Source: a virus (taxonomy: Duplodnaviria; Caudoviricetes). Taken from it: a DNA stretch of 52,475 nucleotides. The notes under the pieces are model-generated. The model was not told where the DNA came from, searched no databases, and saw only the letters and a list, made by a program, of their open reading frames with translations. The position numbers and the translations under genes were made by a program. The DNA lies in IMG/VR virus record IMGVR_UViG_3300024291_000003, positions 1-52,475 of that record. One strand, given 5' to 3'. Below, piece by piece: positions 2,391 to 45,768 of the stretch. Position 1 is the stretch's first letter. Each line of letters starts with the position of its first letter.

Positions 2391-3149
2391 TTAAAGATAA
2401 TCAATCACTTGGTTTGCGTCAGTGTTAGCGATTAGTTTATCTATTGCCTCTTTTTTAATCTGAGAAACACGCACATTTGCAGTGTCCATACTCATACCTA
2501 AAAACTTAGCTATATCATTAGCAGACATTTTATCGGTATCTAAACCAAAGCTTAAACGTAGTACATGATATTGTTGCTCGTTCAAATGTTGCTTCATTAA
2601 ACTTAGCAAGTAAGTATTTAGTATAGCTATGTTATAAGGCTCTGATTCGTCTGGTACTTGAAACAAAGGGTTTTCTTCGTTAGTATTAAAGTTAACGTCA
2701 ATACTAGAAAATATCGAATTAAAAAACATTGTAACGATTTTTTCGTCTTTTGGATTTTTTCTAATTTCATTTAGTTTATGTTCAGGTATACGTATATCAC
2801 CTCTGTTAATATCTATTGCACGTCTAATTGCTCCTTTAATTCTTTTACTAAAAAAGCTTTTAAGTGTTTTTTCAATATCTTCAGAGTCATTAAGTTTAGT
2901 CCATTCTAATTTGTCAACCGCTAGCACTAAACCTCTACTACCTTCTTGTATTAAGTCGTTAATACTTAAGACACCGGATGCTTGGTCACTCGTGGAAAAC
3001 TTTCTAGCTAGATTCTCTACTAATGGTAAAAACTTTACAATTAATTCATCTCTAGTATATTCGTCATAAAACTTACCCTCTAGGTTACATATAGAAGTCT
3101 TTAGATCCTCTTTGTATCTTATGTAGTTTTGTATGTTATATTTTTTCAT
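2391..3149 (-). CDS. Phage sigma-70-family RNA polymerase sigma factor
   Basis: Region 2 (LPLVENLARKF, DLIQEG..GL..AVDK, IKGAIRRAI, IRIPEH) and region-4 HTH (VLRLSFGL...DIAKFLG...RVSQIKKEAIDKL). Confidence 0.9.
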   Translation of the reverse strand: MKKYNIQNYIRYKEDLKTSICNLEGKFYDEYTRDELIVKFLPLVENLARKFSTSDQASGVLSINDLIQEGSRGLVLAVDKLEWTKLNDSEDIEKTLKSFFSKRIKGAIRRAIDINRGDIRIPEHKLNEIRKNPKDEKIVTMFFNSIFSSIDVNFNTNEENPLFQVPDESEPYNIAILNTYLLSLMKQHLNEQQYHVLRLSFGLDTDKMSANDIAKFLGMSMDTANVRVSQIKKEAIDKLIANTDANQVIDYL

Positions 3150-3154
3150 ATTTT

Positions 3155-3187
3155 TATTATCGAAACAAGATCGTGTTTATTTTGTAA
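3155..3187 (-). promoter_or_regulatory. Conserved phage promoter, copy upstream of the sigma gene
   Basis: TTACAA-N4-AACACGA-N8-CGATAATA. Confidence 0.7.
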
Positions 3188-3812
3188 ACGGATCCGCTTG
3201 TTGATTAAGTAGTTCTTTTTCTTTTTTAAGTTCATTGCCCATGTTTCTATATATAGTTCTAGTGGAACAACCTAAATTTTCTGCAAGTCTAGCTACTGTT
3301 ATTTTAATGCCATAATCGTTAATTAATAGCATAGCGTCATATATTTCATTTTCGGTTATACTTTTACGACCGATCAACTTTCCTACTATAGATAGCTTTT
3401 GTCGCATATCAAGTCCTGTAAAGTCTTTAAATATTACTTTACGTAGCTTGTTTGGCGGAGGTCGCTCTAAATCCATAAGAGATACATCGTATACCATGCT
3501 TTGCATTAGATTGTTTGAAACTTTAAAAGTAACAAATCCCGATCTCTTGTTGCACACGTGTTCTGCGATAGAATTAAAGCTCTCTTGGTCCAGTTGTGGA
3601 TTAAGATACCATAATACATACAAATGCCATTTAAGACTCTTATATGTAGTTATTTTAGCGCGCGAGTTGAATAGTGTATAGCATTGGTGCGTTCCGTTTT
3701 CATAGTGCCAACCCCATTCATAGGTTTTTGTTGGCTTGTCTGACCACGGAAAACATCTATATATTATACGATGCTTATCTAGGTATTTGGTATTTCGGTC
3801 GTAGTATGACAT
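3177..3812 (-). CDS. DNA-binding protein with C-terminal HTH
   Basis: C-terminal KITVARLAENLGCSTRTIYR helix-turn-helix; start codon overlaps an inverted-repeat element. Confidence 0.7.
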   Translation of the reverse strand: MSYYDRNTKYLDKHRIIYRCFPWSDKPTKTYEWGWHYENGTHQCYTLFNSRAKITTYKSLKWHLYVLWYLNPQLDQESFNSIAEHVCNKRSGFVTFKVSNNLMQSMVYDVSLMDLERPPPNKLRKVIFKDFTGLDMRQKLSIVGKLIGRKSITENEIYDAMLLINDYGIKITVARLAENLGCSTRTIYRNMGNELKKEKELLNQQADPFTK

Positions 3813-11806: not shown

Positions 11807-11910
11807 ACCTCAGTTACGATGCGTATTAAGTGGTGGATCCCTCAGTGTATTTACCCTGCCCAGTTAAGCCTGCTTCAAAGCCATAGGTTCGGACAGTCAC
11901 CCGTTGAGGT
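11807..11910 (-). ncRNA. Putative structured RNA
   Basis: GC-rich intergenic segment closed by ACCUCA/UGAGGU, with inner GGUG/CACC and UCC/GGA pairings. Confidence 0.4.
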
Positions 11911-11920
11911 TAGACTTAGA

Positions 11921-12235
11921 TTACTTTACTTCCTCTAAGTCAATTCTTTCAATTACTGTATTTCTAACATTAGATGGCATATCGGTAGATTGAGACCAAT
12001 AACCTCTTTTAATCCAACAAGGCATGATGTTTAGTTTAGGTAACATTACTTTAAGTACTTCATCATGATTGTAAGTAATCTTTTGATTTTTGTTGTTAAC
12101 AAAGGTTATAATTTGATTACGACCATACCAAGATTTTCTTACTACAAAGTTTTTTCTTTCAATAGGTGGGAAGATTTCATTTAGTTCTTCTTTAGATAGT
12201 TTAGAAATTGTTTCATTTAGTTTAATAGAATTCAT
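11921..12235 (-). CDS. Early hypothetical protein
   Basis: 104-aa ORF downstream of the promoter at 12279. Confidence 0.75.
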   Translation of the reverse strand: MNSIKLNETISKLSKEELNEIFPPIERKNFVVRKSWYGRNQIITFVNNKNQKITYNHDEVLKVMLPKLNIMPCWIKRGYWSQSTDMPSNVRNTVIERIDLEEVK

Positions 12236-12278
12236 AAGATTTTATATTTATTAAGTTATTATTTATTTGTTACATTTA

Positions 12279-12311
12279 TATTATCGTATACTAGACGTGT
12301 TAAGTTTGTAA
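12279..12311 (-). promoter_or_regulatory. Conserved phage promoter
   Basis: TTACAA-N4-AACACGT-N8-CGATAATA. Confidence 0.8.
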
Positions 12312-12317
12312 GTTTAT

Positions 12318-12473
12318 TTAGATTATATCTAATTCAAGTAGTATACTTTCAAGTATATCCTCCTCGAGGAATTGTTCCTGGTCGTAGTCCAGTTTCATGA
12401 TCTCGATCTGATCTAGGATCTCGGATAAATGTCCAGGATATCTGGATACTATTAGTTGTTCAATTCTGTTCAT
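12318..12473 (-). CDS. 51-aa acidic mini-protein
   Basis: MNRIEQLIVSRYPGHLSEILDQIEIMKLDYDQEQFLEEDILESILLELDII (13 D/E, 3 K/R). Confidence 0.6.
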   Translation of the reverse strand: MNRIEQLIVSRYPGHLSEILDQIEIMKLDYDQEQFLEEDILESILLELDII

Positions 12474-12484
12474 ATTATTTTGTT

Positions 12485-12652
12485 TTATTTATATTGTTGT
12501 ATTAATTTGTTTATATCATTTAGATTTGAAAAGTGGTAATGATAGATAACTTCTTTTGTGTTTGAATTGAATATTGTAAAATCATACATTTTGTGATTTG
12601 AGCAATAATAAATTTGAAAGAAAGTTTTGTTTTTAAAGATTGTATTAGACAT
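12485..12652 (-). CDS. 55-aa early mini-protein
   Basis: MSNTIFKNKTFFQIYYCS...QQYK, first ORF after the promoter at 12682. Confidence 0.55.
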   Translation of the reverse strand: MSNTIFKNKTFFQIYYCSNHKMYDFTIFNSNTKEVIYHYHFSNLNDINKLIQQYK

Positions 12653-12681
12653 TTTATATTTGTTTTTATTTGTTACATATA

Positions 12682-12714
12682 TATTATCGTTTTGATATCG
12701 TATTAAGTTTGTAG
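12682..12714 (-). promoter_or_regulatory. Conserved phage promoter
   Basis: CTACAA-N4-AATACGA-N8-CGATAATA. Confidence 0.8.
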
Positions 12715-12875
12715 AGTATTGTAAGTGCTATACATGCTATACACGGTGTGACGGAGTATACTCTTCCGATCGTATCACAGGATCAGGCCGTAAAGCTGTT
12801 GGTTCCGACTTACGAGTAAAGCTCACGCAGTCTAAATGCAATGCAGAACCAGGATCAGATCAGGTCATGATCAGT

Positions 12876-13031
12876 TCAGCGCTCCAGGATCTCGGTCCCG
12901 ATGACTTTGCTCGTGGACTCATCACGATAGCACACGCGCAGATAATTGCTGAGGTGCTGATCAGTTTTGAATTCGAGCACGCGACTGTTGTAATTGCCGC
13001 GCCAGTTCTTTGTATCTATTCTTACAAGCAT
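12876..13031 (-). CDS. 51-aa early mini-protein
   Basis: MLVRIDTKNWRGNYNSRVLEFKTDQHLSNYLRVCYRDESTSKVIGTEILER. Confidence 0.6.
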   Translation of the reverse strand: MLVRIDTKNWRGNYNSRVLEFKTDQHLSNYLRVCYRDESTSKVIGTEILER

Positions 13032-13047
13032 GTTAAAAGGTTTAAGG

Positions 13048-13149
13048 TTAATGTTTATTCTGTTTGTTGGACTGTACTGTCATGTAGCCAGCAGCCAGCA
13101 GCAAGACCGCGAATATGATCCCGATCCCGATGTCTGTGATCTGTGTCAT
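13048..13149 (-). CDS. 33-aa single-TM peptide
   Basis: MTQITDIGIGIIFAVLLLAAGYMTVQSNKQNKH. Confidence 0.55.
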   Translation of the reverse strand: MTQITDIGIGIIFAVLLLAAGYMTVQSNKQNKH

Positions 13150-13153
13150 CAGG

Positions 13154-13309
13154 CTATCCATAGATCCCGAATGATGTTGGCACGTTACCCATGATCAGAT
13201 TGGTTACGATCGCAAGGATCCCGATCCCGACTGCTGTTGTCATTGTTACAGCGTAAACGTTTAGCGCTAGATTGATCCATACATTGTGGTGAAATTTAAT
13301 TTGTCTCAT
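13154..13309 (-). CDS. 51-aa membrane peptide, first gene of the early arm
   Basis: MRQIKFHHNVWINLALNVYAVTMTTAVGIGILAIVTNLIMGNVPTSFGIYG, downstream of the promoter at 13354. Confidence 0.6.
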   Translation of the reverse strand: MRQIKFHHNVWINLALNVYAVTMTTAVGIGILAIVTNLIMGNVPTSFGIYG

Positions 13310-13353
13310 AGTTATTATTGTTATTGTTATTGTTATTATTTGTTATTCATATA

Positions 13354-13386
13354 TATTATCGTAGGTGTATCGTAACAATACCGTAA
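13354..13386 (-). promoter_or_regulatory. Conserved phage promoter, most upstream and most divergent copy
   Basis: TTACGG-N4-GTTACGA-N8-CGATAATA. Confidence 0.7.
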
Positions 13387-13674
13387 GAAACAACTGAGCG
13401 CGAGATCATGCTGGACTGGATCAGGATCAGATGCTGTGCCGCGCTGTGGCCTGGAGCTGTGGCTGTGCTGGACCTGGATAAGCGCAATCCCGAGCCAGGA
13501 TCCTGTGAGCTGTGCTGATGTTAATGCTATACGCAAAGCTGGGATCATACAAACGTAAACGTGAAACGTGGGCGGGGCTGGGAAAACAAAAGCGCTTTTA
13601 CTTTTAGTGGTAGACAGTGAATTGATAGTAGCAACCCATTACCTCTATATATCTAAGTATTTTTTAAATATTTT

Positions 13675-13718
13675 GCGACGGTAGGTTGTTATATATAATA
13701 GTAGCTAGCTATCGTCAC
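13675..13718. repeat. Inverted-repeat element, copy 3
   Basis: GCGACGGTAGG-22 nt AT-rich-GCTATCGTCAC. Confidence 0.75.
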
Positions 13719-13774
13719 TTTTAATAAACCAGAAAACAGCGTAATCATACAAAGTATGTCACTAAAATAAGATT

Positions 13775-14011
13775 ATGCCACAAAAATTATCTCCTGCAGC
13801 GCGTCGTAGAAAGGCCGCTAGGGACAAAGCTTACGCGATGACCCCACGGAGGAGAAAAATGAAAGCTGAAAACCAAAAACGTCGTCGAGCCGCTGGCAGT
13901 AAAGCCAAAGGTAAGGACTGGGACCACAAGAATAAGAGGTGGGAGACCCCTAAACAGAACAGAGGGAACGATGGGTTAGGCACAAAGAGAGAATCAGGCA
14001 AAAAATACTAA
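13775..14011 (+). CDS. Small highly basic protein, possibly a degenerate HNH
   Basis: R/K-rich; KDWDH...PKQNRG resembles the D.DH...NR HNH pattern. Confidence 0.6.
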   Translation: MPQKLSPAARRRKAARDKAYAMTPRRRKMKAENQKRRRAAGSKAKGKDWDHKNKRWETPKQNRGNDGLGTKRESGKKY

Positions 14012-14054
14012 AAAAAACTCGTAAACGAGTATAATAAACAAACAACCGACCAAA

Positions 14055-15326
14055 ATGGCTAGAATACCTACTTATCATGCTGATACTAATGTATCCGATT
14101 TAGACAGAATAATTGGAACAGACGGAGATAGTCCAGACTTAACTACAAAAAACTTCTTTTTAGGAGATATTGCATCGTATGTTATAGATAAATTTATTGA
14201 ACCAGACGGTAGTGATTACTATTTACCTGTTTTTCGAGCAGAAGGGACAAGAATTACTAACTCTATAATATCTCAAGACATTGCCCCACTGGGCGGCGCT
14301 ATAACCATAGCAGGTAATACTACAATAAATAAGGATCTCGCTGTGTTAGGCAAATCTACTTTAGTTGGAGATGTTGTTTGTAGTAATAACCTAGACATTG
14401 GTAACGAATTGGATGTAGCAGGCGCTACAACACTTAGAAGTTCACTAGTTGCTGAGAACGCAGAGTTCAAACAGCAAGTAATCATGCGGGATAAGCTGGA
14501 TGTATATGGGAGAACAAACATATACAGTCCGTTAATTGTGCATGAAGAGTTAACAGTAAGAGGTGTAGCAGAGTTTCAAGATAGAGTAACCATACAGGAT
14601 CAACTACTAGTACAGGATGATGCCACTTTTGAGCAGAGTATAGGTGTTAAAGGTAAAATTATTGGGCAAGATGAAATATCAATTGACGGTGCAGGATTTT
14701 TTGGCGGCACAGTTAGTGTAGAGGGTGAATTAAACGTGCTTGAAGCAATAAGTCTACAAAACGGAGACATGACCCTAAATTACGGTGGACAAATAAAGAA
14801 AGTTAATGATCCAACTGCAGGCCAAGACGTAGTTACTTTAAATTATTTACGAAACTACACTAAGTTTGGAAACTTTATAGTTTTAAATGGATTAGTTAAC
14901 AATATAGCGTCCCAAGGCGGTGGTTATGACTATATGGAGTGGACAAGCAATGTAACAGGACCTACTCAAATACCTATATTTAAAACCGGTAATGATCTAA
15001 GGTTAATAAGTGTTACTTGGGCTTTTATGGGAGGGCAAGCGTTAAGCATACAGCCAGGAGAAAGTATAGATTTTGGTATAGGAGTAGTTAAACAAGGAGT
15101 TTCATCCGACATAACCAACTACACAGAAGATAAAAAGCTGTTTTCTATAACAGATGTAGATAACGGTACATTCCCGCACGGTATAGTAAAATTTGACGAG
15201 CAGAAGGCTTTGTGGTATAGAGGAGAGCACTTAGCTGTAGTAGGAACAGAAGCAGGGGCTATAACGCCGATAGACGGAGAACTAGCTTTATCCTTCACAT
15301 TTGAGATAGTAGAAATAGAACAGTAA
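14055..15326 (+). CDS. Virion structural protein with beta-repeat shaft (tail fibre/spike-like)
   Basis: MARI.TY...D..IGTD N-terminus shared with the next gene; about 18-aa repeats (L.V.G.......); DPTAGQDVVTLNY. Confidence 0.65.
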   Translation: MARIPTYHADTNVSDLDRIIGTDGDSPDLTTKNFFLGDIASYVIDKFIEPDGSDYYLPVFRAEGTRITNSIISQDIAPLGGAITIAGNTTINKDLAVLGKSTLVGDVVCSNNLDIGNELDVAGATTLRSSLVAENAEFKQQVIMRDKLDVYGRTNIYSPLIVHEELTVRGVAEFQDRVTIQDQLLVQDDATFEQSIGVKGKIIGQDEISIDGAGFFGGTVSVEGELNVLEAISLQNGDMTLNYGGQIKKVNDPTAGQDVVTLNYLRNYTKFGNFIVLNGLVNNIASQGGGYDYMEWTSNVTGPTQIPIFKTGNDLRLISVTWAFMGGQALSIQPGESIDFGIGVVKQGVSSDITNYTEDKKLFSITDVDNGTFPHGIVKFDEQKALWYRGEHLAVVGTEAGAITPIDGELALSFTFEIVEIEQ

Positions 15327-19616: not shown

Positions 19617-21170
19617 ATGGAATACAACAATCCAAGTGAGATAGTGAAAACACTCACTTTTGGCGGAGAAGCCAAAGAGCAGATCATGCAAGGTGTCGAA
19701 AAATTATCAAACGCAGTAAAGAGCACATTAGGAGCATCTGGAAAATGCGTAATATACGAAGACGCACTAGGCAGACCGGTGATAACAAAAGATGGTGTAA
19801 CCGTTGCGGAAAGCGTAGTCTTACTACATCCGGTCGAGAACATAGGAGCCACTCTTATAAAAGAAGCGGCAAGTAATACAGTAAAGGAAGCAGGAGACGG
19901 TACAACAACATCAACCGTCCTTGCTCATTCCTTGCTTAAAACAGTTAACAAGCATTTAGATGAAGAAAAAGTTAGAGAACTTAAGAGCGGCATTATTAGC
20001 GGTTCTGAAAAAGTCATGGTTTATCTTGATAAAACCAGTACTGAAGTTAAGGGTGAAATGCTTAAACAAGTTGCAGGGATTTCATGCAATAATGACCAAG
20101 CGCTCGGCGACAAAATTGGAAAAGCTTACGAAAAAGTTGGAAAAAATGGAGTCGTATTAATGGAAGAGTCTGATACAAACGAGACTTATGTTGAGTTTGT
20201 TGACGGCGTTCAATTTGACAGTGGCTTAAAATCACCACATTTATCTACGGATAAAAACAAAGGTACTGCTACATTAGAAGATCCTTATGTACTAATAGTA
20301 TCTTCTCCAATACCAAATATACGAAGAATACAAAACGTATTAGAATTCGTAATCAAAAATAAGAAAAGTTTACTAGTAGTAGCAGACGTGGAACAACAGC
20401 CATATCAAACTCTATTAGCGAACAAGGTAAAAGGAAACATAAAGATAAATATAGTTGACTTACCTGGATTCGGCCCTACTAAACAACAGACACTAGAAGA
20501 TCTAGCTATATTGACAGGGGCTACAATTATAAACGAGGAGTTAGGAGACGATTTAGACTTCATAGAGCCTAATGTATTAGGTAAAGCTTTTAAGTCCGTT
20601 ACGGATGATAAAAACACTGTTCTACAAGTAGCTGAAGCAACTGAAGAAGTAGCTTTAAGAATAATAGATGTAGAAAAGCAAATAGGTGAAGAAACTAATC
20701 CATTTTTTAAGAAACAATTAGAACAACGCTTGTCTATGTTAACTGGTCAAGTTGGCATTATATACGTTGGCGCGGATTCTAAGGTAGAACTTAAAGAGAA
20801 AAAAGATAGGGTTGAAGACGCTATATATGCGACGAAAGCTGCTTATAAGGAAGGAATAGTTGCAGGAGGCGGTGTAGCGTTATTAAATGCTTCTACTATA
20901 ATTAAACCTAAAAACAAAGGAGAGGAAGTGCTGCTTGAAGCAATAAAAGCTCCATACCATACTATATTAGAAAATGCAAACATACCAGTTGTATATCCCT
21001 CAATGAAAAACAGAGGTATAGACGTTAAGACTGGCAAAGATGTTAATATGGTTAAAGCAGGGATAATTGACCCAGTGTTAGTTACAAAGTCTGCTTTAAA
21101 AAATGCAGTAAGTGTTGTTGCTACTATAATATCAGCGGATTGTGTAATCAGTAATAAAAGATTAGCATGA
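19617..21170 (+). CDS. groEL: Phage chaperonin GroEL
   Basis: ITKDGVTVA, AGDGTTT, GVQFDSG, EKKDRVEDA, GIVAGGG and GIIDP motifs; no GGM tail. Confidence 0.97.
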   Translation: MEYNNPSEIVKTLTFGGEAKEQIMQGVEKLSNAVKSTLGASGKCVIYEDALGRPVITKDGVTVAESVVLLHPVENIGATLIKEAASNTVKEAGDGTTTSTVLAHSLLKTVNKHLDEEKVRELKSGIISGSEKVMVYLDKTSTEVKGEMLKQVAGISCNNDQALGDKIGKAYEKVGKNGVVLMEESDTNETYVEFVDGVQFDSGLKSPHLSTDKNKGTATLEDPYVLIVSSPIPNIRRIQNVLEFVIKNKKSLLVVADVEQQPYQTLLANKVKGNIKINIVDLPGFGPTKQQTLEDLAILTGATIINEELGDDLDFIEPNVLGKAFKSVTDDKNTVLQVAEATEEVALRIIDVEKQIGEETNPFFKKQLEQRLSMLTGQVGIIYVGADSKVELKEKKDRVEDAIYATKAAYKEGIVAGGGVALLNASTIIKPKNKGEEVLLEAIKAPYHTILENANIPVVYPSMKNRGIDVKTGKDVNMVKAGIIDPVLVTKSALKNAVSVVATIISADCVISNKRLA

Positions 21171-25574: not shown

Positions 25575-25794
25575 AGAGCTAATAAAAGTAGCTAAGGAAC
25601 CTATTGTAGATTCCGACGATGACATATCAGCTGATAGGCTTAAGAATGCGGCAGCCACTAAAAAGCTGGCTATATTCGACGCGTTCGAAATATTATCAAG
25701 AATACAAGAAGAAGAAGCTATATTAGAAAACAAACCTAAAGAGGAAGAAAAGAAGAAAACTTTTTCAGGGTTCGCAGAAAAAAGAAGCAAGTAA
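25519..25794 (+). CDS. Putative terminase small subunit
   Basis: Helical 91-aa protein (start MNIKETK) coupled to the large subunit. Confidence 0.55.
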   Translation: MNIKETKKSIILAGQRAVEELIKVAKEPIVDSDDDISADRLKNAAATKKLAIFDAFEILSRIQEEEAILENKPKEEEKKKTFSGFAEKRSK

Positions 25795-28004
25795 TGTACG
25801 AGCAGACTTTATATAGCGTAATAACTCCCATAAAGCAAACCACAATATCAAGGTTAAATAAAAGCAAAAAATGGAGGTATGGATACAACAAGGAACACGA
25901 TGTTGTTGTTATAAGTAAGACTGGGCAAATTGGTGAAATATACAATATACAGAATTTAAAAATTGCATTGCCAAAAGAACCAGTCAAAATTAATAAGTCT
26001 AGTGATAAGTGGGTAGCAGATGAATACCCGAAAGAGCTAAAACAAATACAAAGTGTTTTTGATTGGCGAGATTATCCTGAAGACTTCAAAGAAAAATGGG
26101 AACCATATATAGATGAACAATTCAAGCGCAGAGAAGAAGGCCATTGGTTCAATAATAAGAGCATGGCTACTTACATTACTGGCACTCACTTTATGTACTT
26201 GCAGTGGAGCAAGATTGACGTTGGGAAACCAGACTTTAGGGAAGCAAACAGACTATTCTTTTTATTCTGGGAGGCTTGCAAGGCAGACTCACGATGTTAC
26301 GGAATGTGTTACCTTAAGAACCGTCGTTCCGGATTTTCATTTATGTCTTCAGCAGAGACCGTTAATATGGCAACAATTACGTCGGATGCACGGTACGGTA
26401 TCTTGTCTAAGTCTGGAGCCGATGCTAAGAAAATGTTCACTGATAAGGTTGTACCAATATCCGTTAACTACCCCTTCTTTTTCAAACCGATCCAGGACGG
26501 TATGGACAGGCCCAAGACCGAACTTGCCTATAGAATCCCAGCCAGTAGACTCACTAGAAAATCCTTACAGAATAAGAAAGATCAGGAGCTCCTCGAGGGT
26601 CTTGATACCACAATCGACTGGAAGAACACGGGTGACAACTCCTACGATGGGGAGAAACTTAAACTCCTCGTCCACGATGAATCGGGTAAATGGGAAAGGC
26701 CGGACAACATCCTCAACAACTGGAGGGTCACGAAAACAACATTAAGACTAGGGGCTAGAATTATCGGTAAGTGTATGATGGGAAGTACATCAAACGCTTT
26801 AGATAAAGGAGGAGAGAACTTCAAAAAACTATATAATGACTCAGACGTTACAAAACGAAACCGCAATGGACAGACTAAGTCAGGATTATATTCTCTGTTC
26901 GTTCCTATGGAATGGAATTACGAAGGATTCATTGATTCTTATGGAATGCCTGTATTCGAAGATCCATCAGAAGATTGCGTTGGACCACACGGAGAGTCTA
27001 TCGAGGTCGGTGTCATCGAACATTGGGATAATGAAGCGGAAGGTTTAAAAGGCGACCAGGATGCTTTAAATGAGTTCTACAGACAGTTTCCTAGAACAGA
27101 AGAACACGCATTTAGAGACGAAACAAAAAATAGTATATTCAATTTAGTAAAAATATACGAACAAATAGATTATAACGAAGATTTAAAAAGCTCAGCAGTA
27201 GTTACTACGGGTAGTTTTAACTGGGAGCATGGTGTTAAAGATAGCAAAGTTATGTTTTCACCAAATCCAAACGGTAGATTTAAAGTTTCTTGGGTTCCTA
27301 AGATTGCTTTACAAAATAAACAAGTGATTAAAAATGGGGTAAGACACCCCGGCAATGATCACATTGGGGCGTTTGGTTGTGATAGCTATGATATATCAGG
27401 AACAACAGATGGGAGAGGATCGAAGGGTGCTTTGCACGGTTTAACTACTTTTAGTATGGAGGATGCACCTCCTAACACTTTCTTTTTAGAATATGTAGCT
27501 AGGCCACAAACCGCTGAAATGTTTTTTGAAGATGTTTTAATGGCATTGGTATTTTATGGAATGCCTATATTATGTGAAAACAATAAACCTAGATTATTGT
27601 ATTATTTAAAGAGACGAGGGTATAGAGGATACTCTATGAATAGACCTGATAAACTTTATAATAAGTTATCTGTAACAGAAAGAGAAATAGGTGGAATACC
27701 AAACTCGTCAGAAGATATAAAGCAAGCTCACGCAGCTGCTATAGAAACTTATATTCAAAATCACGTAGGTGTAACTAGTGATGGAGAATATGGGTCAATG
27801 TACTTTAATAATACCCTGAATGATTGGGCGAAATTTGATATAAATAAAAGAACAAAATTTGATGCCGCTATTAGTTCAGGTTTAGCTATAATGGCGTGCA
27901 ATAGACATCTATATAGACCAAACCCACGAGTTGAAAAACAAAAGTTAAATTTAAGCATTGCAAGGTACAAAAACAACGGTGCAATTTCGAAAATAATAAA
28001 ATAA
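25794..28004 (+). CDS. Terminase large subunit
   Basis: Walker A-like LKNRRSGFS, Walker B LLVHDESGK, motif III GSTSN, nuclease FGCDSYD...FDAAI. Confidence 0.92.
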   Translation: MYEQTLYSVITPIKQTTISRLNKSKKWRYGYNKEHDVVVISKTGQIGEIYNIQNLKIALPKEPVKINKSSDKWVADEYPKELKQIQSVFDWRDYPEDFKEKWEPYIDEQFKRREEGHWFNNKSMATYITGTHFMYLQWSKIDVGKPDFREANRLFFLFWEACKADSRCYGMCYLKNRRSGFSFMSSAETVNMATITSDARYGILSKSGADAKKMFTDKVVPISVNYPFFFKPIQDGMDRPKTELAYRIPASRLTRKSLQNKKDQELLEGLDTTIDWKNTGDNSYDGEKLKLLVHDESGKWERPDNILNNWRVTKTTLRLGARIIGKCMMGSTSNALDKGGENFKKLYNDSDVTKRNRNGQTKSGLYSLFVPMEWNYEGFIDSYGMPVFEDPSEDCVGPHGESIEVGVIEHWDNEAEGLKGDQDALNEFYRQFPRTEEHAFRDETKNSIFNLVKIYEQIDYNEDLKSSAVVTTGSFNWEHGVKDSKVMFSPNPNGRFKVSWVPKIALQNKQVIKNGVRHPGNDHIGAFGCDSYDISGTTDGRGSKGALHGLTTFSMEDAPPNTFFLEYVARPQTAEMFFEDVLMALVFYGMPILCENNKPRLLYYLKRRGYRGYSMNRPDKLYNKLSVTEREIGGIPNSSEDIKQAHAAAIETYIQNHVGVTSDGEYGSMYFNNTLNDWAKFDINKRTKFDAAISSGLAIMACNRHLYRPNPRVEKQKLNLSIARYKNNGAISKIIK

Positions 28005-38600: not shown

Positions 38601-41434
38601 CTGGTAAATATGGATCTAGGAGAGTCGTTAGATGGAATATTAAAATAGATAAACCTATAGCTTCAGCCGCTGGTCTACCAACACCAACTGGCAGTTCTAA
38701 TCCACCACAAAAGCCAATTGAATTTCTAAGGCTATACGCTGTCGACGCAGATACTTATACTTCTACAAACCCAGCTATATTTGAGACTTACCCAAAAGAA
38801 GCTATTGATTTAGATTTATATTATTCCGCAAGTGATATATATAGTATAGAGAATCCCGGCACAACAGAAGCAGCTCACCAACCTATCAAGAAGCTTGGTT
38901 GGTTTAATTGCTATACATTCGGTAACGGTGTTGAATCAGATCGTATACGTGACGATTTTAACGCTGTCCGTATAGACAAAGGTCCTGTTGTTTCTACTGT
39001 ACTAGATGAGGCATACGGTGAAGAGTTAAAAGCAACTGGTTTAATATTTTCTCAAATATTTAACTCAAGGTCTGGTATTAATAGACTTAATCAGTTTATT
39101 ATGGCTGAGCCAATAACAAAAGACTTAAACCCATATTACACTAGTGTTCAAAAACTACATTCAAGAGATACCGATTTAATAGCTCTATGTGAAGATAAAA
39201 TATTAAAAATATTAGCAAACAAAGATGCCTTATTCAATGCAGATGGTAATACAAACGTTGTTGGTAACACCGCTGTTCTTGGACAGTCTATCCCGTTTAT
39301 AGGGGAGTATGGTATATCTAAGAATCCTGAGAGTTTTGCTTCTTATGGGTTTAGAGCTTATTTTACAGATAAAAACAGAGGAGTTGTATTAAGGTTGTCT
39401 AGAAATGGATTAGAGGAAATATCGTCAGCAAATATGCGTGATTTCTTTGCTGATAACTTATACTCATCTTCTGTCTTATTAGGCTCATACGATGACGATA
39501 AGAACGTTTATAATCTTACTCTTAATAAACTTACTGATGAGTGGCAAAGCAAGCTTAAACTCGGCGAAAACAGATCGCAGGGTCGAGTTAATGAAAAAGC
39601 TATACAGCTTCCGCCTCACACAGGTACAACTGTTTCTTTTAAAGAAGATGTAAAAGGTTGGACATCCCGTAAAGACTTTATACCAGAAGGAGCTATATCT
39701 TTAAACAATGTTTATTATAGTATAAAAAAGGGTAGAATATGGGAGCACGGGGCTACTAATGCTACTAGAAATAATTTTTACGGTGTTCAATATGATAGTG
39801 CAGTGCGCTTCATGATAAATGAGCAACCTAATAGCGTTAAAAAATATAAGACTTTAAACTATAACGGTACAGAATCAAAAGAATACAGGTATAAAGTAGA
39901 AGGTTTCCCAGAAGTTCAAACATTTAGTTTAGCTGAACTACAAGCTAACCCATCTTATGTTCCTATTAGCGAAGTTTCTACACCTGGATGGTATTCAAGT
40001 TTAATACAAACCAATTTACAAGAAGGTAGTATTAAAGAATTCTTAGACAAAGAAGGGAAGTACTTTAATTATATAAAAGGTATTGGAACAAAATTTGAAT
40101 CAAACCATGATAATAACCTAGATAGCTCAGAGTTTTCAATGCAGGGAATTGGGCGAGCTGTTGTTTCAGGAGACGTACAATCGTCATTTATTATGCATGT
40201 AGAAGTTGATCCTACTTGTTATATAAGCAGGGTAGCTCCAGTAGTTGTAAATGGTAATTTAGATATATACGAAGACTGTTCTTCATGCGGCTCGATCGAC
40301 TTAGCTAATTTAACAACAAATAGTAATAGCCCAGCCGGCAATGTAACATATCAAATAGTTCAAGATAATACAAATGATGTATTAGCTATACTTAGCGGTA
40401 GTGTAATGCAATACCAATCTGTTACACCTAATTTTAATGGAAGCGCTGGCTCGTTTAACTTTACAGCAACAGACACTCTTAATGGATCCTCTTTAGTGAG
40501 CAACGTGGGCACTGTTACTGTTAATGTTATACCTGTTCCAGATGTACCTTACTTTGTAACAACTCCGCCAAATACTTCTCAGGCTGTAGGGGATCTTTAT
40601 ATGTACAATTTCCAAGTTGATGATGCAGATCACGCAGCTGGTGACTTAATTATAACGTCCAACAACTTACCTAGTTGGTTAACAATTGCCCATCAAATTG
40701 ATGGTAACTACGTGGTTAGTGGTATAATACCAGACACAAACACTTATAATTTTGATTTAATCGTAAGCGATACAGATAATCCACCAAATACAGCAACACA
40801 AAATGTTGAAACATCTAGTGCGTTAGCTAATCTTTTAAGCAATTTAGATATAATAGGTAGATACGTTAAAACAGCGGAACCAGCAGGAGTTTGGGTAAAT
40901 CCAAGTACAGGCGTTTCAACCCAAGTATGCGCGTCAACAGCTAACGGTAGTCACACTTGTAACTACGGTACATTCAATATATTAGCTAAAGGAGATTTAA
41001 TGTCTGCCCCTTTAGAAATTGGTAGAGTGTCTATATCGAATTCTGGTGGTGGTGGAAATAACGGAAGCGCGTCGACGGTTGTTGATGATGATGGCAACTA
41101 CACTCTTGATCTAGGGGTTCCTAGTGGTAATGAGAAATACTATACTCCACAAGGTACAGTTAGAAGTGATAAAGATAGATACGATGGTTTTCAAATAAGT
41201 GCTGCGGATGCTCAAACTTTAGCTAATGGATCTAGCAATGGACACATCACGTTCACAATGGAATGTGGAAGCACTAAGGTTTTGAGCAACGGAACAGTTG
41301 AACCACTATGTCATGCAGATGCATTATGGTTTCAGATATTTGATTTAAACGGACAACAAATACTATGTAGCGCTTTTACTGTTCAATCTTTAATAACAAT
41401 TGACATATACACAGGCCAACCTGTCGAAGACTAA
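35675..41434 (+). CDS. Tail nozzle/stabilization protein with Ig/cadherin-like C-terminal extension
   Basis: GKMNKDLDERL.P.GEYRDALN N-terminus, GEYGISKNPESFA, GWTS; C-terminal F.FTATD...VTVNV.PV.D.P.F and LPSWL modules. Confidence 0.75.
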   Translation: MPEFLHTFLKGKMNKDLDERLVPNGEYRDALNLEVATSEGSDVGALQTLIGNVQKENRSLNDITTLHTTWQASGLAYIPVDSKCIGTVKDPTTEKIYWFIAASSINAIIEYDQIRDVVYPILVEKKSDSNFLKFSPDHLITGVNILEGFLFFTDNQTEPKKVEIEKFKEGSTSFDQTTQIFGRNIEEADITVIKKSPLLKPTIYKKESVRDGEIRTTTSFEFNTLSTDPEDDPDEVISMDFGTVITLDWADPADYIAGDFLLLSIQDPDDNFNRSFQARVKVTQVVSELQCICELQSVGEDLPPGVQGFDVELELDDPLFEFKFPRFAYRYKYDDNQFSAFSPFTEVAFIPGQEFEYTGADGYNLAMTNNIRVLEVRDFISSDIPDDVIAVDILYKESSSTNVYRVDTIEKSAPNLPGKDYNQWYDTSYQGPASTGFSGRIKIETELISSLLPSNQLLRPYDNVPLKALAQEITGNRLVYGNYTQNFNMVDFADNEVIPNFEFSIVHDPSKNEDIDPDTGLNSQSDPIAGVPIESLKSMRTYQMGIVYLDEYGRQTPVFTNDSGGRSLAKEFADLYNTIEIGMLSNPPKWATHYKFYVKETSNEYYNIALDRFYLPDDGSVWLSFPSADRNKVDEETFLELKKEHDNDVFIAETARYKILSISNEAPDAVKIRRSQVGRQSTPFTASGYPQVNKGFFEVPKDDFEGTDTGGGGLADLNKENNLSCRIIMGGRISDYFEIEWIKKQGAVYRIQLRFPTDDSIDFVPEGQTTGNMDIAIYQSKAENKPEYQGRFFVKIYKDNALEQRIIKLAEDAQLTVEYTAQVAYIQKDGKTSWWRDSDPRVSKKWFWDKVHPLDVRRRASPDVKFQNGNQLERPYTGLGIQTGSRDLTISYHGFGNPWKQSRAFYNRKGIWWNWPTNTPSDAHHIGFAKSLDTTGSVFRVAEDPDKELDDHTYTITKSYRSAYCVASRRTGRHGSGKYGSRRVVRWNIKIDKPIASAAGLPTPTGSSNPPQKPIEFLRLYAVDADTYTSTNPAIFETYPKEAIDLDLYYSASDIYSIENPGTTEAAHQPIKKLGWFNCYTFGNGVESDRIRDDFNAVRIDKGPVVSTVLDEAYGEELKATGLIFSQIFNSRSGINRLNQFIMAEPITKDLNPYYTSVQKLHSRDTDLIALCEDKILKILANKDALFNADGNTNVVGNTAVLGQSIPFIGEYGISKNPESFASYGFRAYFTDKNRGVVLRLSRNGLEEISSANMRDFFADNLYSSSVLLGSYDDDKNVYNLTLNKLTDEWQSKLKLGENRSQGRVNEKAIQLPPHTGTTVSFKEDVKGWTSRKDFIPEGAISLNNVYYSIKKGRIWEHGATNATRNNFYGVQYDSAVRFMINEQPNSVKKYKTLNYNGTESKEYRYKVEGFPEVQTFSLAELQANPSYVPISEVSTPGWYSSLIQTNLQEGSIKEFLDKEGKYFNYIKGIGTKFESNHDNNLDSSEFSMQGIGRAVVSGDVQSSFIMHVEVDPTCYISRVAPVVVNGNLDIYEDCSSCGSIDLANLTTNSNSPAGNVTYQIVQDNTNDVLAILSGSVMQYQSVTPNFNGSAGSFNFTATDTLNGSSLVSNVGTVTVNVIPVPDVPYFVTTPPNTSQAVGDLYMYNFQVDDADHAAGDLIITSNNLPSWLTIAHQIDGNYVVSGIIPDTNTYNFDLIVSDTDNPPNTATQNVETSSALANLLSNLDIIGRYVKTAEPAGVWVNPSTGVSTQVCASTANGSHTCNYGTFNILAKGDLMSAPLEIGRVSISNSGGGGNNGSASTVVDDDGNYTLDLGVPSGNEKYYTPQGTVRSDKDRYDGFQISAADAQTLANGSSNGHITFTMECGSTKVLSNGTVEPLCHADALWFQIFDLNGQQILCSAFTVQSLITIDIYTGQPVED

Positions 41435-41439
41435 TAAAT

Positions 41440-42996
41440 ATGAGTAATACAACGGCAATAGACAATTTTACGGTAACCTCAACAGAGCATATAATACCAG
41501 GTGGAGAACTAATAGTTGACCACACTCAAGCTACGGTTCTTACTATATCTCCTAATCAGGGATACCAAGTAAATGCAACTGACTTTTTTATCAACTCAGC
41601 AAGCCCGGAGGTAGATGTACCTAATTCTTTTTTCTCTCAATCAGGAAGTGATGTTAAGCTGAATGTACTGTTTCTTGCTAATGCAGTAATGCCTTTTTCT
41701 AATTTAGAGATAAAGATATGCATGCGAGGCGGAGCAGGAGAAATTGGAGCTGTGGTAGGTGGGGTTATTTATTTCGACACCGCTAATGCATCACCACCAT
41801 TTGGCACTGCGACATTTTCAAACGAAGGACCCGCAGATACAACTGAAACCGTTATATCCGAGTTGATAGTAGCAGACGCGGATTATTACTTCCAACAAAC
41901 ACCAACTATATCTTTAAGATCTGGCGAGGCTGATAATTATAATTTTTATACAACCGGCTCTGTGTTTAACGCAGAGGGTAGATTAACAGCAATAAGAGTT
42001 AATGCCGATTATACTTATCCGTTTGCAAACGCGCAAGGTGATGAAATTGATATATACGGTCACGCTATAATTATACCGGTTATTAACGAGATAGTTACAG
42101 CATGGGGAATAAACACCTCTGTACCCGCTACGGTCGCGTCTAATAGAGACTTAGCTATATTTGGTGGTACTGGAGCACAATACAGTTTAAGTATAGACAA
42201 TGGGGCAACGTTCAGTAATAACCAAGCCACAATACAGGGGACTATACCGGTTGGACAAGCTCTTGAAAATATAAATTTTCCATCAGTAAAGGGCGGCGTG
42301 GTACATACTTTACAGTTTAATTTGAATTACCCTGCCGGGGATTCCGACTTAGACCCTGCGCGACCTGCAGAATATTGGACAATAGTATTCGATAGATCAA
42401 TTCCAGTTAATATAGAATTATCAGGAACAATAGGATCTTTTGATGGTATTCAAATATCAGACAACGGCCCAACCACTTGGCAAGGTCAGTCAACCAGCAA
42501 TCAATTAAGCAGCATAATGTTTACATTAGTTGGTCCAATAGGTACAACACTGGAGTGGAACGATACTTTACAAATACCTGAAAGCGCATTCACTAAGAAC
42601 GAAGATTTACCAGATGGAATATTTACAATAGCAGGTGCTAATAAAAACACAGATGGACCCAACCAGGTTGCTACATTGACTGTGCAATCAAGTACAGGAA
42701 ATACCGGTGTAAACGATATGAGTTTCTCTATGTCGGCTCTTACATTGCAAAGCTACTTAACTATTAATTATGAATGCCAGCGATATGATCTAACGGCAGG
42801 GCAACAAGAAGACGGTGTTTTTGAATATTATGACTGTGGTGATTTGTCGCCAACATTAGTAACAGTAAATATTGGTACAGTTAATCAAGTGTGTGCATCG
42901 ACAGTATTCCCACCAACATTAGTTAACGGTCAAGGTACTGTTGTGATAACACAAACACCTTGTGTGCCAGGGCCAGACTTACCGCCACCGGATTAA
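41440..42996 (+). CDS. Beta-rich virion structural protein
   Basis: Acidic, T/G-rich, LTISPNQGY motif; in tail module. Confidence 0.6.
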   Translation: MSNTTAIDNFTVTSTEHIIPGGELIVDHTQATVLTISPNQGYQVNATDFFINSASPEVDVPNSFFSQSGSDVKLNVLFLANAVMPFSNLEIKICMRGGAGEIGAVVGGVIYFDTANASPPFGTATFSNEGPADTTETVISELIVADADYYFQQTPTISLRSGEADNYNFYTTGSVFNAEGRLTAIRVNADYTYPFANAQGDEIDIYGHAIIIPVINEIVTAWGINTSVPATVASNRDLAIFGGTGAQYSLSIDNGATFSNNQATIQGTIPVGQALENINFPSVKGGVVHTLQFNLNYPAGDSDLDPARPAEYWTIVFDRSIPVNIELSGTIGSFDGIQISDNGPTTWQGQSTSNQLSSIMFTLVGPIGTTLEWNDTLQIPESAFTKNEDLPDGIFTIAGANKNTDGPNQVATLTVQSSTGNTGVNDMSFSMSALTLQSYLTINYECQRYDLTAGQQEDGVFEYYDCGDLSPTLVTVNIGTVNQVCASTVFPPTLVNGQGTVVITQTPCVPGPDLPPPD

Positions 42997-43007
42997 AATA
43001 AATAAAT

Positions 43008-43340
43008 ATGGATCAAATAACTTTAACTTTTCCCAACCCAATACAAGTGTCTGTGCAGATAGGAGATATTGCTTATTATACTAATGATCCTATGGGGTCA
43101 GAGGTTGTAAAAATAGGTGATGTAATTAACATAGACTATGGAGCAAGAACCATTAAATGCAATATTCCAGCATGGGCAATTAGACCCACTAATTCGTCTT
43201 TCATATTATTTACAAAAGACAACAAGGTTAACACTAGCGGTATTTTAGGATACTTTGCAGAGGTTGAGCTTAGGAATGATTCTTTAAACAAAGCAGAGCT
43301 GTTTTCAGTGGGTTCAGAGATATTTGAGAGCAGCAAATAA
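43008..43340 (+). CDS. Small structural protein
   Basis: SVQIGDIAYY...GYFAEV.L.N...AELFSVGSE..ESS. Confidence 0.65.
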   Translation: MDQITLTFPNPIQVSVQIGDIAYYTNDPMGSEVVKIGDVINIDYGARTIKCNIPAWAIRPTNSSFILFTKDNKVNTSGILGYFAEVELRNDSLNKAELFSVGSEIFESSK

Positions 43341-43357
43341 CATGTAATAATAATTAT

Positions 43358-43846
43358 ATGTCAAAAAATGAAATTAAATCCAATGAAAGCAAGCTTAGTA
43401 ACTTTGTACATCAATTAGAAGATTTACAAAATACTATGATTGAAAACAACCATTTAGAAAACGTATTTGGAGACGGCAAAAATCTCGTGAATAATGAAAT
43501 ATTCAAAATAGAAAGCGAGTTTTCAGATCAATTATACATGCGTAAAATGTATATGCCTAAGGAATGCGTAGTAGTAAGTGCAATGCACCACACTGAGCAT
43601 TTTTGGTTTTTATTAAAAGGACGAATACTGGTTACTACAGATGGCAACGAAGTAGAACACATAGCTCCTTGTTATGAAAAATCTATGAAGGGGGCAAAAA
43701 GATTAATATTATCTTTAGAAGATTCCTTATTCATAAACGTTCATAAAAACCCAACAAATACTAAAGACATGAAAGAGGTTGAAGAGTCTTTGTACTCTAT
43801 AACACTCGAAGAATATAATAAAAAAGAAAAACTATGGCAGGAATAG
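43358..43846 (+). CDS. Cupin-fold protein
   Basis: LYMRKMYMPK..VVVSAMH.TEH...LLKG...AP.....G.KR. Confidence 0.7.
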   Translation: MSKNEIKSNESKLSNFVHQLEDLQNTMIENNHLENVFGDGKNLVNNEIFKIESEFSDQLYMRKMYMPKECVVVSAMHHTEHFWFLLKGRILVTTDGNEVEHIAPCYEKSMKGAKRLILSLEDSLFINVHKNPTNTKDMKEVEESLYSITLEEYNKKEKLWQE

Positions 43847-44514
43847 CGAGCGCATTAGCAATCGGAGGCGCTGTAAAAGGACTCACCGGTATAGCCGGAG
43901 GAATTATAGGTAGTGGTAAAAGGAAAAGAGAACAAGCAGCAGCTCAAGAGGAGTATGATATGTTTAAAACCCAATACCAAGAACTAGATACCTCTAACTT
44001 ATATGCTAATTTAGAAAACACCATGGAAGACTTAACAGTCGACCAAAGAGCTGCAGAGTTCCAGTTGCAAGCACAGCAACAGGGGCAAGCTAATATTATG
44101 GAGCAAATGTCTGGAGCCGCTGGTGGTTCGGGAATTGCAGCACTAGCTCAAGCTATGGCTAATCAACAAACTTCTAATGCAGCGGGTGCAGCAGCAAACA
44201 TAGGCCAACAAGAGAGAGCTAATCAAATGGCTAAGGCAAGTCAAGCAGCTACTCTACAAAACCTAGAAGCACAAGGAGCTGAGCAAGCTAGATCTTTAGA
44301 ATACAGTAAAACAAGTACTCAACTAGGAATGGCTCAACAAAGATTGGGCGCAGCTAACCAAGCTAGACAACAAGCTACTCAAAGCATATTGGGTGGTGTT
44401 GGAGACCTAGTGGGATCAGCAGCAGGGGCTGCATCAGCGGGAGCTGGAGGTGGTAATATGCTGAGAGGGGGTCTTGGTCAAAACCTATTAAAAGGCTTCG
44501 GCTTAGCAGGTTAA
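43834..44514 (+). CDS. Internal virion (ejection) protein
   Basis: G/A-rich hydrophobic ends, Q/A-rich coiled coil. Confidence 0.65.
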   Translation: MAGIASALAIGGAVKGLTGIAGGIIGSGKRKREQAAAQEEYDMFKTQYQELDTSNLYANLENTMEDLTVDQRAAEFQLQAQQQGQANIMEQMSGAAGGSGIAALAQAMANQQTSNAAGAAANIGQQERANQMAKASQAATLQNLEAQGAEQARSLEYSKTSTQLGMAQQRLGAANQARQQATQSILGGVGDLVGSAAGAASAGAGGGNMLRGGLGQNLLKGFGLAG

Positions 44515-44526
44515 ATATAATAAACT

Positions 44527-45753: not shown

Positions 45754-45768
45754 TTAAAATAAAATAAT

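Follow-up and report, generated by a model that had tools for sequence, protein, structure and literature searches.

The stretch of viral DNA analysed here (the window) is the whole IMG/VR record IMGVR_UViG_3300024291_000003, 52,475 bases in length and rated 82% complete. Its genes are arranged in two divergent arms. The leftward arm runs from ∼13,310 down to position 1 and carries small open reading frames (ORFs) together with an Erf annealing protein, a PDDEXK exonuclease, a sigma factor, a DNA ligase and a nucleotidase, a gene content which suggests that it is the early arm, as it is labelled below. The rightward arm begins at 13,775 and carries fibre-like proteins, a GroEL-type chaperonin, the large terminase, portal and capsid proteins and two giant ORFs. 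An island dense in GATC and CCWGG (W = A or T) lies exactly at the divergence point of both arms and heads the leftward, early-type arm. The initial annotation of this DNA had placed the island at the head of the early arm, and the gene map fits that position.

The large terminase is nearest to that of an uncultured freshwater podovirus (MW202828.1, 63% identity), followed by those of the Flavobacterium 'elemo' phages and of Cellulophaga phages (∼45%). The contig appears to be that of a marine podophage, kin to Flavobacterium and Cellulophaga phages. Twenty runs of seawater or marine metagenomes, dated 2015 and 2018, contain near-identical DNA. The island DNA gave no match to GenBank phages, and a tblastn search with the protein of G104, the conserved gene at the far end of the island, gave no match.

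The features of the island are listed in Table 1. Array A contains the words CCAGGATCCTGG, CCAGGTCC and CTGATCCTGATCC; positions 13519-13532 form a GTATAGCATTAACA box. In array D a (GATCA)n micro-repeat spans 12853-12879, and 12721-12742 holds two GTATAGCA boxes; one relative (L022) is 94% identical to the window over 12483-12852. Micro-tandem repeats of GATCA (5.2 copies), GATCCC (2.5 copies) and AGCCAGC (2.4 copies) are present, and an AT-rich (TTATTG)3.8 stretch adjoins array A. The 100-nt-spaced exact repeat that had been described was recovered as GATCCCGATCCC, starting at 13117 and 13217, and the word GGGATCGGGATC shared by genes B1 and B2 is repeat D3.

Table 1. Features of the island, in leftward order from the arm junction, followed by features elsewhere in the window
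Feature	Position	Strand	Remarks
First rightward-arm gene, 78 amino acids (aa), very basic (Arg/Lys-rich)	13775..14011	+	no Pfam family; start codon is the arm-junction anchor
Conserved non-coding inter-arm region	13574..13767		GATC-free; blastn 72-83% identity to many relatives; alignment A1
Array A, non-coding, 52% GC, before first early promoter	13366..13560	-	5 GATC, 3 CCWGG
Early promoter-like motif, copy 1	13341..13362	-	ACGATAATATATATGAATAACA on minus strand; repeat family D1
Gene B1, 51-aa membrane-type peptide	13154..13309	-	6 GATC, all at G/ATC codon junctions
Gene B2, 37-aa membrane-type peptide	13048..13161	-	3 GATC, including GGGATCGGGATC as in B1; 8-nt overlap with B1
Gene C, conserved 51-aa protein	12876..13031	-	2 GATC; 3' end carries CCAGGATC
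Array D, non-coding, before second early promoter	12701..12875	-	5 GATC, 1 CCWGG
Early promoter-like motif, copy 2	12671..12690	-	
Gene F55, 55-aa, AT-rich	12485..12652	-	GATC-free, breaks up the island; 7 homologues with 2 GATC in 1059 nt
Gene E, 51-aa acidic protein	12318..12473	-	4 GATC within 22 nt (encoding SEILDQIEIM), 2 CCWGG
Early promoter-like motif, copy 3	12268..12287	-	
Gene G104, conserved 104-aa early gene	11921..12235	-	GATC-free; marks island end
Helix-turn-helix (HTH) protein	3177-3812		
Sigma factor	2391-3149		
GroEL-type chaperonin	19617-21170	+	PHROG 5725, E 1e-136; also in MW202828.1 and elemo phages
Large terminase gene	25794-28004		12 kb from island
Giant ORF, 1919 aa	35675-41434	+	crAss-type muzzle domain, C-terminal
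Giant ORF, >2235 aa	45769-52473	+	runs off contig; zeta-toxin/AAA_33 kinase-like domain at ∼residues 2030-2180

GATC occurs 200 times in the window, with 25 copies in 12377-13546, 21 in 12768-13546 and 21 in 12737-13560. Four copies lie within 22 nt (12399, 12405, 12410 and 12417; span 12399-12420). The island also holds 7 of the 33 CCWGG of the window (12377, 12433, 12849, 12884, 13450, 13473 and 13495). The initial annotation had given the same counts for both sites. Over 12737-13560 the 21 GATC compare with expectations of 3.1 from a mononucleotide, 4.6 from a first-order Markov and 11.4 from a second-order Markov model, and 2000 dinucleotide shuffles gave a mean of 4.60 (standard deviation 1.99) and a maximum of 11. 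For 12377-13546 the shuffle mean was 5.9 and the maximum 15, so that 25 was reached in 0 of 2000, as was the count of 7 CCWGG (0.70 expected). Array A (5 GATC vs 0.78 in shuffles) and array D (5 vs 0.83) each exceeded all 2000 shuffles. Outside the island 179 GATC were observed vs 170.5 expected (1.05). All 800-nt windows with at least 8 GATC start within 12101-13201, and elsewhere the maximum was 7 and the mean 3.0. Among the 16 four-base palindromes GATC alone is strongly enriched in the island (6.7-fold), followed by GCGC (3.2-fold) and CGCG (2.7-fold). Local GATC density is far above chance, as in a Dam-type controlled element, and is alike in non-coding arrays (10 in ∼370 nt) and tiny ORFs (15 in ∼580 nt). 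Outside 12737-13560, CATG (83) and TCGA (82) each occur at about half of the 170.5 expected; in relatives the two return to ∼1 within the early leader.

Relatives were fetched via G104, which gave 95 loci, of which 80 were kept. A profile anchored at the arm junction was computed for 60 relatives, window excluded, and per-lineage ratios were computed for 55 relatives with the island taken as 1300 nt. The observed/expected ratio of GATC was 0.7-1.0 in the structural arm, 1.8-2.0 at +250 to +1500 nt of the early arm and 1.0-1.3 beyond; GC content in the enriched bins was just 32-34% despite the enrichment. Summed over the 55 relatives, 379 GATC were observed vs 188.9 expected after background scaling. 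The island/background ratio was at least 2 in 28 of the 55, and the Poisson probability was below 0.01 in 16 and below 0.001 in 9. The ratio was below 1 in 12 relatives, six of which had zero GATC in 1300 nt, and the spread among relatives was far over Poisson (chi-square 146.9, 54 degrees of freedom). Among 56 lineages the window has the highest ratio (5.68), followed by 3.96. A check in relatives, proposed with the original observation, thus found the excess present in the family, at a weaker level than in the window and missing from part of it. The results support the GATC cluster as a genuine feature of the early leader in this family of phages, specific to that position.

In the complete relative G002 the leader is the top GATC window of the genome (11 GATC); in G001 the leader holds 7 and one window elsewhere 8. 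Background GATC usage was not linked to island strength (rho 0.21, P 0.13). CGCG stands at 1.6-2.6 in the leader family-wide and CATG rises there from ∼0.4 to 1.0-1.4, so GATC is not alone in its rise across the family. Active purging of GATC from some leaders was considered and rejected, since six zero-count loci vs 3.4 expected without enrichment (P 0.11) fit an absence of enrichment. Relatives fetched via a 423-aa fibre-like protein (8 loci, one close) were not used.

Two more distant relatives avoid GATC. MW202828.1, the nearest GenBank relative, has 0 GATC vs 174 expected (1-50000; L094), and the cultured Flavobacterium elemo phage NC_055854.1 has 38 vs 147.5 (1-50000; L220), which argues for strong selection on GATC, linked to the host, among these phages. 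The general statement that phages avoid such palindromes accordingly applies strongly to these two relatives and does not apply to the present phage outside its island. Avoidance of restriction sites is a known feature of phage genomes and includes the site-free first-entering DNA of T7 and T5. Here the same tetranucleotide is selected in the phage group, but with the opposite sign in the window, where it stands at 1.05 in the background and is concentrated in the leader.

The non-coding arrays were compared across 52 non-redundant loci, window included. In most relatives the stretch before the first early promoter cannot be aligned with the window, yet it is built to a similar plan, with short words repeated along a run of higher GC content. 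CAGGATC is present in 50 copies in 21 of the 52 arrays, 34 times the gene-body rate, in both orientations (29 vs 21). Also over-represented are CCAGG, with 83 copies spread over 26 arrays, CAGGA (103 in 29), GGATCC (21 in 15) and CCTGGTC (26 in 12). From these words the unit was derived as CCAGGA(T/C)C. GATC and CCWGG co-occur because this unit holds CCWGG and, in its T form, GATC. All 3 CCAGGAYC (Y = C or T) of the 52.5-kb window fall in the island, as do 6 of the 13 CAGGATC (3.1 expected over the whole window), and at 6 of the 7 CCWGG the next three letters are GAT, GTC or GCC, matching the array word. At least three CAGGA[TC]C were found in the leader of 17 of 60 relatives, with totals of 70 T-form and 29 C-form copies. 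In complete relatives the word clusters in the leader only, with 8 of 20 CAGGATC of G002 within 436 nt and 3 of 11 of G001 within 93 nt. The position and words of array A recur in relatives. The share of T and C forms was not linked to background GATC usage (rho -0.33, P 0.19, 17 loci).

In most relatives a conserved AAAAGCGCTTTT-type palindrome (13583-13604 in the window) followed by a C-run (∼13566-13575; CCAGCCCCG, or GGGGNCCCC in other lineages) stands directly before the array. Palindromes as a class were not enriched in the arrays of 51 relatives (four-base 734 vs 689, six-base 213 vs 174), and a general cluster of palindromes or restriction sites was rejected. Structured RNA was likewise rejected (folding z-scores of +1.21 for array A and +0.10 for array D; one chance-level Rfam match at E≤1). 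A scan of viral contigs for three close CAGGATC gave at least 117 matches in unrelated contigs, many of them probably coding tandem repeats to judge by their even spacing, and was too unspecific to be used.

The promoter-like motif on the minus strand (ACGATAATATA...) has 11 matches with at most 1 mismatch in the early arm, between 6240 and 13365. Its core CGATAATATA is invariant in 11 of 11 aligned sequences. Promoter cores are nearly free of GATC (0.6 per kb in -50..0). Because the motif does not resemble the Bacteroidota consensus, it may be read by a phage-specific polymerase or sigma factor. Often GTATAGCAYTTACA is found ∼35 nt ahead of the motif, and most copies lie shortly before an ORF start. 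A sigma-70 promoter scan of the window stayed at shuffle level, and a promoter/terminator scan gave nothing bearing on the island.

The coding part of the island was analyzed at the level of codons. The four island ORFs that carry GATC (B1, B2, C and E) hold 15 copies, compared with a mean of 2.28 and a maximum of 6 in 20000 synonymous resamplings at genome codon usage. In B1, ATC encodes 6 of the 7 Ile residues and in each case follows a codon with a final G (TGG, GGG, GGG, GCG, CTG and GGG), which yields its 6 GATC and bears out the initial annotation. Five distinct DNA sequences of B1 homologues in relatives hold 14 GATC in 714 nt, with a GC content at third codon positions (GC3) of 0.60. 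Gene C belongs to a family of 40 protein clusters (53-100% identity, none named), and 10 homologous DNA sequences hold 25 GATC in 1557 nt (GC3 0.66). Seven homologues of gene E hold 20 GATC in 1023 nt, mostly via Asp-Gln and also Glu-Ile pairs (GC3 0.25). No homologue of B2 was found among the 80 relatives' loci. GC3 of the B1 and C families is 0.60-0.66 in all homologues vs 0.22-0.35 in other genes, and ATC, AAC, CAC, CTG, GAG and CAG are all raised. The preference for ATC is also seen where the preceding codon lacks a final G (0.34 vs 0.13-0.14) and in G104 (287 of 626 Ile codons), which is not GATC-rich.

Leader ORFs of 60 non-redundant relatives carry GATC at 1.8-2.4 times the expectation from locus codon usage and at 1.25-1.46 times that from permutation of their own codons; further along the arm the latter value is 1.13-1.37. 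Most of the coding excess is carried by codon usage, because permutation of a gene's own codons removes most of it and leaves ∼1.3-1.7-fold. The proposal that the sites were imposed through synonymous codons is borne out at the level of genome codon usage, under which the excess survives the suggested codon shuffle; under the genes' own codons most of it is lost. Sense-strand word enrichment in leader ORFs was uninformative, being dominated by the 104-aa gene, and a paired test of Ile ATC codons (36 of 43 loci) was confounded by the same gene and was not relied on.

Population variants were taken from assembled contigs of short-read runs. A contig of one 2015 run (X8) spanning 11900-14100 differs from the window at 6 positions in 2.2 kb; none of the six falls in a GATC vs 0.27 expected, so these differences are uninformative on the sites. 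In a co-occurring variant strain 3 of 6 GATC are changed among 22 differences in 231 nt, with no special conservation, and the B2 segment (13035-13179) is swapped for 208 other letters. Joints from promoter to promoter (12285 to 12665) show co-occurring strains of the seawater runs in which the two genes between copies 3 and 2 are missing. The tiny early genes appear to behave as promoter-flanked cassettes with turnover. A weak joint (12690>13682, side 22) may stem from another phage.

Tentatively, and with less than even confidence, the island is read as a composite of multi-copy protein-binding arrays and a codon by-product at the head of the early arm. Two non-coding arrays, each just upstream of promoter copy 1 or 2 and built from CCAGGA(T/C)C repeats in either orientation, would be multi-copy sites for a putative sequence-specific DNA-binding factor of phage or host. 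The factor would act on the first early promoters and perhaps also on a divergent rightward promoter. Between and after the arrays, four tiny cassette-like genes use ATC for Ile and many G-ending codons; the residue pairs Gly-Ile, Glu-Ile and Asp-Gln together with this codon usage create GATC at codon junctions, and most coding GATC would be a by-product. The layout fits, with array A between the inter-arm region and promoter copy 1 and array D before copy 2, and a recurrent, clustered word before a promoter, at a position conserved in relatives, is what a multi-site transcription-factor array would have. The arrays, the word of which they are built, their place, their recurrence in relatives and the codon usage were observed directly, whereas protein binding to the arrays and a resulting control of transcription are inferred. 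The earlier proposal of selected methylation or restriction targets is partly supported: the cluster is real and enriched, but several results speak for other causes, among them that CCWGG and some of the GATC copies belong to the longer, non-palindromic CCAGGA(T/C)C.

Several results weigh against this composite. The exact CAGGATC word is present at only 5 of the 25 GATC, and 15 of the 25 lie inside ORFs. Many arrays of relatives carry quite different words at the same place (CGGAGCG, GT-rich or TTCGGC runs). The flanks of the 25 sites are heterogeneous, GATC is the sole strongly enriched four-base palindrome, and its equal density in coding and non-coding DNA looks like a region-wide signal. 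Permutation of the genes' own codons gives 8.7 GATC (1.92 + 1.84 + 1.88 + 3.03) vs the 15 observed, and the homologue families exceed such permutation as well (B1 14 vs 10.5, C 25 vs 18.4, E 20 vs 12.3). Unrelated leader ORFs of two relatives (L042 and L081) are also GATC-rich. Because two distant relatives purge GATC, 25 neutral by-product sites would be costly in some hosts. No array-binding protein was identified in the window, in which an HTH protein, a sigma factor and the basic 78-aa protein are encoded. The last of these, adjoining the arrays, is a candidate DNA-binding or internal virion protein, and tblastn matches to it were found on the opposite strand in 73 of the 80 relatives' loci. 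Histone-like complexes such as those of phi29 p6 and SPO1 TF1 form on early-promoter or end regions through many weak sites over several hundred bp. An even density across coding and non-coding DNA would fit a complex of this kind. No such protein was identified, and the basic 78-aa protein is no more than a candidate.

If GATC itself were selected, the sites would be targets for a host Dam-type methyltransferase or a GATC-binding protein, and their methylation state (parental vs newly replicated) would time the start of early transcription or replication. This is a possible but doubtful explanation. It would account for the 6.7-fold enrichment of GATC vs at most 3.2-fold for the other 15 palindromes, for the heterogeneous flanks and equal coding and non-coding density, for the codon-level excess over both genome and own usage, for the family-wide 1.8-2.0 at +250 to +1500 nt and for the GATC-rich, non-homologous leader ORFs of L042 and L081. 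Selection on GATC is seen in the phage group through its two avoiding members, and PMC9516812 reports both GATC and CCWGG as methylated in marine Caudovirales metagenome-assembled genomes. On the other side, relatives use the C form (29 of 99 copies) or other words at the same place, a ratio below 1 or zero GATC is found in part of the family with a spread beyond Poisson, promoter cores are almost GATC-free, and the leader also shows a rise of CGCG and CATG. Own-codon permutation takes away most of the coding excess, the variant strain alters half of the GATC that were compared, and island strength is unlinked to background usage. No match to the methyltransferase family PF02086 was found in the window record or in five relatives' records (G001-G005), nor to PF01555, PF05869 or PF00145 in the window record or 4 complete relatives, and a Pfam scan of 41 window proteins gave no methyltransferase; any methylation of island GATC would have to come from the host. 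A specific and quite unlikely form of this explanation is a timer read through methylation, in which the GATC within and near the CCAGGATC words would be methylated by a Dam-type enzyme of the host and binding of the array factor would depend on the methylation state. An injected, fully methylated genome would then be told apart from fresh copies, and the first early promoters or the start of replication would be switched. Methylation-sensitive control regions with 2-3 GATC in ∼100 bp are present at phage Mu mom (with OxyR), E. coli pap (with Lrp) and agn43. The island resembles these in having several GATC in putative binding words upstream of a promoter, embedded in a longer word. It differs in having 25 sites over 1.2 kb including coding DNA, in its probable Flavobacteriia-type host, in relatives that use a GATC-free form of the word, and in that no methylase or binding protein was identified for it. 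The composite of binding arrays and codon by-product can be combined with selection on GATC itself as methylation-sensitive binding, which is the case of the timer.

That the island has no dedicated function was judged unlikely. It would then be the sum of slippage micro-repeats, foreign or GC3-rich cassette genes and acidic or Ile-rich peptides, noticed as the extreme of a broad distribution. The micro-tandem repeats of the window, the perfect hexamer and heptamer tandems in relatives, the rank of the window as the most extreme of 56 lineages, cassette turnover by promoter-to-promoter joints, the GC3-rich homologues of B1 and C and the largely Asp-Gln origin of the sites in E are all in its favour. 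It does not explain why arrays keep their word and place in lineages that can no longer be aligned, why the leaders of G002 and G001 rank so high within their own genomes, or why array counts exceed 2000 of 2000 shuffles; the island is also that of the dominant strain, with only 6 differences in 2.2 kb between X8 (2015) and the window. An element of DNA ends, entry or packaging was judged improbable, whether built as T7-left-end-like repeats, as a T5-like injection-stop region or as a P1-like methylation-gated pac site. In T7-like phages arrays of short repeats separate the terminal repeat from the early promoters, T5 has a repeat-rich injection-stop region, and P1 pac has 7 GATC hexamers in ∼160 bp. 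Here too, arrays of 7-8-nt words stand immediately before the first early promoters and vary among relatives, in the order of conserved region, short-repeat array and first early promoters, and a 22-nt stretch (12399-12420) holds 4 GATC. The phage resembles podoviruses and encodes giant virion proteins as well as a crAss-type muzzle domain. Unlike those of T7 and T5, the arrays have both orientations and lie at a junction of divergent arms. Two groups of GATC hexamers on either side of a cut site, in or beside the terminase small-subunit gene, as in P1-type pac, were not found; the island is not in or near terminase genes, which lie 12 kb off. Contigs run through the junction, complete contigs end elsewhere, and the ends of G002 abut each other inside the 1919-aa gene. 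A replication origin, in which an initiator would bind the GC-rich repeats next to the very AT-rich DNA of promoter and leader where the arms part, is a shade more improbable still. GATC clusters are present at some origins, such as E. coli oriC (with SeqA) and P1 oriR, and at these and P1 pac, as here, local GATC is many times the background. SeqA is not known outside the gamma-proteobacteria. The cumulative GC skew has its minimum at ∼11-13 kb and AT-rich stretches such as (TTATTG)3.8 adjoin array A, but the skew switch coincides with the coding-strand switch. DnaA boxes number 16 vs 14.4 expected, with none in the island, in contrast to oriC. The repeats are 7-8 nt long and in both orientations, the three or more direct repeats of ∼17-22 bp of an iteron origin were not found, and no initiator-like gene is next to the island. 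The tight GATC group differs from those of oriC and P1 pac in lying inside an ORF (12318-12473), whose homologues owe their GATC to Asp-Gln pairs. That the first-entering DNA carries the island as a decoy or sink, drawing off restriction nucleases or methyltransferases of the host, was offered in the initial annotation and is very improbable. The density of sites and the GATC-directed selection on relatives would fit, but palindromic sites in general are not enriched in arrays. With type II systems more sites mean a higher chance of cleavage of unmodified DNA.

No tRNAs were found in the window. The part of the G001 genome without counterpart in the window (L097; G001 40001-49300) encodes both chains of ribonucleotide reductase, thymidylate synthase, a MazG-like protein, DUF1064 and an M15 peptidase; a Pfam scan of 12 ORFs of this part gave no DNA polymerase or methylase. 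A literature search found no paper on a GATC island or such arrays in Flavobacteriia phages.

Marine Flavobacteriia have abundant phages whose first steps of infection are barely understood, and the island offers a concrete control region. A single group of phages spans complete avoidance of GATC and a six-fold local excess of it, a natural test of whether host GATC systems shape the regulatory DNA of phages in addition to their site avoidance. The timer, if true, would be the first such epigenetic switch in a Bacteroidota phage and would explain why sister lineages build up or lack GATC according to the host's GATC system. If the sites are methylated and read, Dam-type epigenetic control extends to Bacteroidota phages; if they are not, clusters of methylation sites can arise from a longer binding word together with codon usage.

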